Position numbers and translations under genes: made by a program | Part shown: positions 43,035-43,412 of the stretch, piece by piece | Layout: every line of letters starts with the position of its first letter | Position numbering within the stretch: position 1 is the stretch's first letter | Notes under the pieces: model-generated | Told to the model about the DNA's origin: nothing | The model's database searches: none | The model's input: the letters and a program-made list of their open reading frames with translations, nothing else | Assembly (NCBI RefSeq): GCF_048403405.1 | Contig: NZ_CP183129.1 | DNA length: 64,000 nt | Reading direction: 5' to 3' (one strand) | From: Escherichia coli | Lineage (GTDB): Bacteria; Pseudomonadota; Gammaproteobacteria; Enterobacterales; Enterobacteriaceae

Positions 43035-43412
43035 TTAGTCATACTGTATTTGCGGAGAAACTGTTGATAAAACATCAATAACATCATTTGACGTGGCAAT
43101 GACATAATGCTCGATCACATTATTTTTATAAATTTCACAACTTTGCATAGTAAACCATGCAAAGTAGGCGGAATTCACTACTCTATAGATCCCCGTTTGG
43201 TTAATACCGTGAATTCCTGACATTCCTAACAAATCACCTTCGTCAGTAACACGAAATGAATGTATCCAGTCAAATGATAACTTAACTTCTGACTTGATCG
43301 CCGGACATATGAGGGTAAGTTCAAGCCTGGCATTTTTATAGCTTAAATCTGATAGTTCGGCATTTTTAAAAGACAATGAAGTCGGAGTGATATTTATAAA
43401 ACATTCATCCAT
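43035..43412 (-). CDS. hypothetical small acidic protein (cassette gene C)
   Basis: 125 aa ORF with ATG and a Shine-Dalgarno (GAAGGGG) 9 nt upstream; AT-rich; no family recognised. Confidence 0.55.
   Translation of the reverse strand: MDECFINITPTSLSFKNAELSDLSYKNARLELTLICPAIKSEVKLSFDWIHSFRVTDEGDLLGMSGIHGINQTGIYRVVNSAYFAWFTMQSCEIYKNNVIEHYVIATSNDVIDVLSTVSPQIQYD

Follow-up and report, generated by a model that had tools for sequence, protein, structure and literature searches.

Gene C, which occupies positions 43035..43412 on the minus strand of the 64,000-nucleotide stretch of Escherichia coli DNA analyzed here (contig NZ_CP183129.1, hereafter called the window), is probably an orphan immunity gene of the CdiI/MafI type, whose toxin is missing in Escherichia and whose product would protect the cell against a toxin delivered by contact. 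We assign this reading a probability of roughly 80 %. It is founded on the position of gene C homologues in other bacteria, where they directly follow the toxin end of CdiA, on a remote homologue behind an orphan MafB C-terminus (MafB-CT) in Neisseria gonorrhoeae, on a predicted fold resembling a known immunity protein and on long conservation of the gene in Escherichia. Judged by sequence, both the putative immunity family and its cognate CdiA/MafB C-terminal toxin are new, as neither is represented in Pfam, NCBIfam or the PDB. The analysis supplies a testable function for a 'hypothetical protein' that about 11 % of complete E. coli genomes encode, among them those of the O157:H7 lineage, and defines an unannotated pair made up of a ~90-aa CdiA/MafB toxin and a ~125-aa immunity protein.

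Gene C and the hrpA-ydcF islet

The window stems from the E. coli chromosome, where the genes are arranged as aldA-ydcF-islet-hrpA. Between the conserved flanking genes ydcF (42119..42919) and hrpA (44591..48493), both encoded on the minus strand and found as open reading frames as well as in the PGAP annotation, lies a variable islet of about 1.5 kb, whose limits of 42993..44516 were derived from a blastn comparison with a genome carrying the empty site. Its GC content, measured over 42940-44590, is 36 % compared to 49 % for the window. The islet comprises only four small open reading frames, all annotated merely as 'hypothetical protein', and no integrase, transposase, other mobile-element or phage genes were detected within its 1.5 kb. 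Our literature search on the hrpA-ydcF islet returned nothing relevant.

Gene A (43968..44306, minus strand) encodes 112 aa according to PGAP and overlaps the start of gene B (43532..43981, minus strand), for which PGAP gives 149 aa and a TTG start codon at 43990 would give 152 aa. An earlier note on this DNA had described gene A as a protein of 130 aa starting at 44360; the gene is present, but the PGAP start at 44306 gives the shorter length. The additional N-terminal stretch (44306-44360) was probably created by the deletion junction of gene D. This fourth gene persists in the window as a remnant on the minus strand (about 44311-44445, PGAP pseudogene 44341..44445) with roughly 35-44 codons left, and the alignment gap corresponds to a deletion of about 290 bp. 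In O157:H7, gene D is intact with 141 aa and the islet consists of four intact genes in the order D-A-B-C. Genes A, B and D gave no significant match in Pfam, NCBIfam, PADLOC or PHROGs, and are unrelated to each other as well as to gene C in BLASTP and profile comparisons. None of the three is found in the CDI loci that we fetched, A and D have no matches on plasmids, and within the searches carried out all three were confined to Escherichia. Judged by their position, they could be further immunity genes.

The open reading frame listing places an ATG start codon at the beginning of gene C, the translation contains all three peptides quoted in the earlier note, and RefSeq/PGAP holds the same coding sequence as 'hypothetical protein' WP_000343026.1. 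As the note had proposed, the gene has a ribosome binding site of its own, since a Shine-Dalgarno-like GAAGGGG (43420..43426, minus strand) can be read from the sequence 7 nt before the ATG. The upstream spacer likewise has the length that had been given, with the stop of gene B at 43532 leaving 119 bp (43413..43531), which hold no detectable toxin remnant. Its description as promoter-like and AT-rich is not supported: a sigma-70 consensus scan found no site in the spacer on the strand of gene C, and its AT content of 60.5 % is lower than the 64 % of the whole islet. The product is small and acidic as stated, with a pI of 4.73, 15 aspartate and glutamate against 8 lysine and arginine residues and a net charge of about -7. 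We also agree that it lacks a CHH motif and any evident relation to A and B, as BLASTP revealed no resemblance between it and A, B or gene D of O157 and HHalign profile comparison gave probabilities below 1 %. As the protein has no hydrophobic N-terminus, it is most likely cytoplasmic.

Two further features were observed elsewhere in the window, both on the plus strand. One is a Hok-type toxin open reading frame of 49 aa at 38082-38231, annotated as hokB in a related genome, and the other an intact gapC-type glyceraldehyde-3-phosphate dehydrogenase gene of 333 aa at 39440-40441; in K-12, gapC is a pseudogene.

Gene C homologues in cdiI position

Loci encoding gene C homologues were scanned in one genome per species with an 18-sequence alignment as query, followed by open reading frame analysis. 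In Duffyella gerundensis, Edaphovirga, Citrobacter, Serratia rubidaea, Yersinia artesiana and Providencia rettgeri, homologues with 41-47 % identity to gene C occupy the position of cdiI and start 4-6 nt (7 nt in one count for D. gerundensis) after a VENN-containing CdiA open reading frame. The large open reading frames preceding the homologues carry Fil_haemagg_2 and PT-VENN domains, and their last ~90 aa form one common domain. Remote family members of ~30 % identity on short metagenome contigs (P0088 and P0075) also follow open reading frames encoding toxin tails, one of which ends in DPTLEIQYGRNKRLKFRFIN directly before its stop codon. The homologues of Cedecea neteri, Erwinia phyllosphaerae and Lelliottia lie in arrays among further cdiA-CT/cdiI modules, with frameshifted or truncated remains of the toxin tail in front of them. 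Upstream of the gene in E. coli there is neither cdiA nor a toxin remnant, and no cdi locus lies nearby.

A SymE_toxin-family gene is located on the opposite strand right after the Duffyella cdiI homologue (loci L004-L006, 8434-8766, minus strand), and a second one was seen inside another CDI orphan array (locus L009, 3114-3317), so the association of SymE with CDI is recurrent.

The pairing also reaches a second delivery system. A maf island of N. gonorrhoeae encodes an orphan MafB-CT sharing 38 % identity with the enterobacterial toxin, and a 133-aa open reading frame starting 3 nt behind it matches the profile of the gene C family with an HHalign probability of 95.9 % and E = 5.9e-9, at only about 13 % sequence identity to the family. 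As the pairing is observed on CdiA and on MafB-CT, toxin and immunity family travel together on at least two delivery systems. The island holds MafB, small immunity-like open reading frames and orphan MafB-CT cassettes. The matched region (NZ_CP119142.1, locus L032; also NZ_CP119140.1) belongs to two 2.17-Mb chromosomes that are filed as 'plasmids' in PLSDB and are almost unannotated.

Among the cognate pairs, toxins are 77-89 % identical and their immunity proteins 48-64 % identical. With 41-47 % identity to the cognate immunity proteins, the E. coli gene C product falls just outside this range; it may plausibly cross-neutralize the toxins.

The cognate toxin would be the ~90-aa C-terminal domain of CdiA. 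Its core found no match in Pfam and none by sequence in the PDB. Only the segment ahead of the core found a counterpart, namely the entry/linker part in structures of CdiA tRNases, e.g. 5J43 (E = 2e-5), which fits a toxin that is imported into the cytoplasm. The conserved residues of the domain are E34, K55, D67, R74, D79, R81 and E85, numbered as in the toxin alignment; no histidine is among them, which speaks against a metal nuclease of the PT7 or HNH type. Our guess is that the toxin is a nuclease, the activity that we regard as most plausible. PT4 of Nachmias et al. was considered as the toxin and rejected, PT4 being a periplasmic, membrane-damaging protein of 149 aa, whereas the toxin described here is a ~90-aa α/β domain paired with a cytoplasmic immunity protein. 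Among the toxin candidates that did not pass validation, Table S3 of bioRxiv 10.1101/2021.10.19.465003 has one of 98 aa in Rahnella and one of 77 aa in Salmonella; by size and host, they resemble fragments of the present toxin family from Rahnella (P0240, 97 aa) and Salmonella (P0223/P0228).

No trace of such a toxin was found near gene C. Searches by tblastn with the CdiA-CT detected no remnant in the islet (best E = 0.62) and no toxin anywhere in the window, and a blastn search of 5,426 complete E. coli genomes for toxin-coding DNA, sensitive at the DNA level only, gave no match.

Protein family and predicted fold

The gene C family was represented by 55 clusters at 90 % identity in one search and by 197 cluster representatives at 50 % identity in an exhaustive search. 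Gene C matched nothing in Pfam, NCBIfam or PADLOC, and a comparison of 81 family members with Pfam likewise revealed no significant match, including the immunity families CdiI_2, CdiI_3 and CDI_Immunity_Comp. The family is characterized by the motifs F-D-x3-S-[FY]-R-x2-D-E-G-D, N-S-x-Y-L-x-W-F and H-Y-x-I-x-T-x-N-D-x-I-D-V-L-S-x3-P. One protein of 2,817 aa (P0082) matches the family within residues 1835-1925 (E = 3.9e-8) and has a Baculo_E56 Pfam match as well; a fusion or a misassembly might explain it.

Profile search and structure prediction, both recommended in the earlier note, had different outcomes. Searches of the PDB with the gene C sequence (phmmer) and with the family profile found nothing, while an AF2 model built from the 81-sequence alignment reached a pLDDT of 88.7 and a pTM of 0.83 and showed a mostly β architecture with two helices. 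Foldseek identified PIM7 (8OWU) as the closest solved fold, with a probability of 0.99, TM scores of 0.47-0.52 and 10-12 % identity, and gave nothing else credible. PIM7 is the immunity protein of PT7, an LXG-type polymorphic DNase toxin of Bacillus cereus, whose active site it blocks through a negatively charged surface (bioRxiv 10.1101/2021.10.19.465003). As the structural match is moderate and 8OWU did not appear in the phmmer and profile searches of the PDB, we count it towards an immunity-type fold of the gene C product and not as evidence of membership in the PIM7 family. A PT7-like cognate toxin, i.e. an Asp/His metal-dependent DNase, is disfavoured by the lack of a conserved histidine in the toxin domain.

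Conservation and decay in Escherichia

A full-length copy of gene C was found in 584 of the 5,426 complete E. coli genomes, O157:H7 included; the gene forms two main allele groups, with the O157:H7 type being about 91 % identical at the DNA level. The hrpA-ydcF site is empty in most E. coli, K-12 among them, leaving an intergenic region of 271 bp, and roughly 86 % of the complete genomes show no trace of the gene. About 190 genomes retain just a short piece of roughly 50 bp, and in the one such genome that was examined gene C is internally deleted and adjoins an SMI1/KNR4 gene. At least three states of the junction therefore occur in E. coli: an empty site, the D-A-B-C islet and a deleted gene C with SMI1/KNR4, the last of which also has a hypothetical gene on the opposite strand. 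Outside E. coli, gene C was also located next to ydcF in three further lineages, namely E. whittamii, E. albertii and an Escherichia genome of a cryptic clade.

Pairwise dN/dS values between E. coli, Escherichia sp., E. whittamii and E. albertii range from 0.12 to 0.34, with dS reaching about 1, which demonstrates that gene C has long been kept under purifying selection in the absence of its toxin. This conservation in four Escherichia species, together with the size of the protein family, makes gene C more than a chance open reading frame. E. coli gene C furthermore retains all invariant or near-invariant residues of the family, namely F47, E58, S81, W86, H102 and P120.

Between this strain and O157:H7 (locus L002, 1636-2013), gene C shows a dN of 0.064 and a dS of 0.234, compared to 0.007 and 0.105 for ydcF. 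The far stronger divergence of gene C suggests old allelic lineages, or a relaxed or diversifying pressure on the islet.

Parts of the islet are decaying, as seen from the remnant of gene D in the window and the internally deleted gene C described above. Gene C might accordingly be regarded as a leftover without function from some old cdi, maf or rhs locus that is drifting towards loss, a view also in keeping with the missing toxin, both in the window and, at the DNA level, in E. coli, and with the many genomes that carry a short piece of the gene or none of it. The low dN/dS over such a divergence, the intact reading frame in all 584 genomes, the complete set of family-conserved residues and the good ribosome binding site speak against drift, and we consider a mere relic improbable, although it is the rival that survives best. 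A retained orphan immunity gene accounts for the same data with a higher probability.

Immunity-type genes at the hrpA-ydcF junction

Other genomes carry immunity-type genes at the same site. In Pseudocitrobacter sp. 73, the hrpA-ydcF interval (locus L011, 4923-6802) contains DUF596, CdiI_3 and LprI genes next to a gene C homologue of 41 % identity; an unassigned 142-aa gene belongs to this array as well. In the cryptic-clade genome of Escherichia, the site accommodates an additional DUF7021+DUF2262 gene, and the SMI1/KNR4 gene of the short-piece E. coli genome encodes a member of the SUKH immunity superfamily. SUKH is documented as an immunity superfamily, and DUF596 corresponds to Imm-NMB0513 (Zhang et al. 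2012, PMC3482391). Similar company is found away from hrpA: homologues adjoin CdiI_2, CdiI_3, MafI, Imm42 and DUF4279 genes across Cedecea, a metagenome contig and a Cronobacter plasmid, the latter from Cronobacter dublinensis and carrying the homologue among genes annotated as 'MafI family immunity', 'immunity 42 family' and DUF4279. The arrays located between hrpA and ydcF indicate that this junction is a small hot spot gathering immunity-type genes in Enterobacteriaceae. By analogy, the islet in the window is probably a polyimmunity islet, an interpretation that is weakened for this particular array because A, B and D match no immunity family. A bolder version, in which the junction is a dedicated interbacterial defence slot of Escherichia and related bacteria exchanged by recombination, gene C actively shields E. 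coli, O157:H7 included, from the CdiA/MafB toxin domain of other Enterobacterales and A, B and D represent three new immunity families against other toxins, is tentative and in our estimation rather doubtful.

It is also conceivable that gene C keeps an immunity fold but was co-opted in Escherichia for a different role in the cell or against phages. The long persistence without a cognate toxin would agree with such a change, as would a weak full-length match of gene C to phrog_15075, a phage family of unknown function (E = 0.0096). PADLOC, however, found no match, the islet contains no mobile-element or phage genes and the hrpA-ydcF site has repeatedly gathered immunity-type genes, which fits defence against toxins better than recruitment, so we attach very little probability to the latter.

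The earlier note had viewed gene C as a possible immunity-like or antitoxin-like partner of genes A and B. The immunity-like character is borne out, as homologues hold the cdiI position in at least six genera and the predicted fold resembles PIM7, whereas the partnership with A and B and the antitoxin role are not. That gene C serves A/B as immunity or antitoxin partner in a self-contained cassette is highly improbable: although the three genes are lined up on one strand and inherited together in Escherichia, with no terminator-like site detected between B and C in our scan, the gene C family extends to over a dozen genera other than Escherichia, where neither A nor B accompanies it and where it is paired with another conserved toxin, A and B are small, neutral to acidic proteins matching no toxin, defence or phage family, a protein search found relatives of gene B only in Escherichia, and the Pseudocitrobacter homologue at the same site has wholly different neighbours. 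The co-occurrence of C with A and B that the note had suggested examining does not hold across genomes, which is the outcome that the note itself had named as refuting its proposal.

Proposed function

In the mechanism that we propose for the orphan immunity gene, producer strains carry the immunity gene directly behind cdiA, and its product would bind the toxin domain one-to-one and thereby block it, since all characterized CdiI proteins work in this way. In Escherichia, the toxin gene is missing and the immunity gene alone remains, beside three unrelated small genes. Gene C would then be an acquired defence or polyimmunity gene that shields E. coli when neighbouring Enterobacterales deliver the toxin by contact. 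We infer binding, neutralization and cross-species protection by gene C from the homologous systems, and as no toxin or remnant adjoins the E. coli gene, its assignment is based on homologues of 41-47 % identity. Immunity proteins are usually highly specific, and delivery by CDI is often limited by receptor specificity, so that exposure across species is uncertain.

If gene C is protective, it would represent an enterobacterial, CDI-directed counterpart of the T6SS orphan-immunity clusters known from gut Bacteroidales and Vibrio, and it would bear on the survival of E. coli lineages under contact-dependent attack in mixed gut communities.

Comparison with known systems

A close parallel is offered by the orphan cdiA-CT/cdiI modules described by Poole et al. 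2011 (PMC3150448), as gene C homologues follow a VENN-delimited CdiA-CT and also occur in downstream modules with decayed toxin fragments. With CdiI proteins, the gene C product shares its small size, its acidic character and its predicted cytoplasmic location. It differs from them in having no sequence relation to the Pfam CdiI families or to any solved CdiI, and the E. coli gene lies between two housekeeping genes without cdiA or a toxin fragment.

The islet likewise resembles the polyimmunity loci of Zhang et al. 2012 (PMC3482391) and the AID clusters of Ross et al. (bioRxiv 10.1101/471110) in that it contains a toxin-less immunity homologue in a strain-variable, low-GC array, and that the same site elsewhere carries DUF596/Imm-NMB0513, CdiI_3, LprI or SMI1/KNR4. 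In contrast to these loci, the E. coli array comprises just 3-4 genes and the neighbours of gene C belong to no recognized immunity family. AID clusters differ further, as the E. coli islet has no integrase or mobile element and the weapon countered by gene C would be a T5SS/CDI system (and Maf) instead of the T6SS. MafI of the Neisseria maf islands shares with the gene C family the position behind its toxin, a remote homologue following an orphan MafB-CT by 3 nt, while there delivery depends on MafB and the Neisseria protein is only distantly related to the gene C family.
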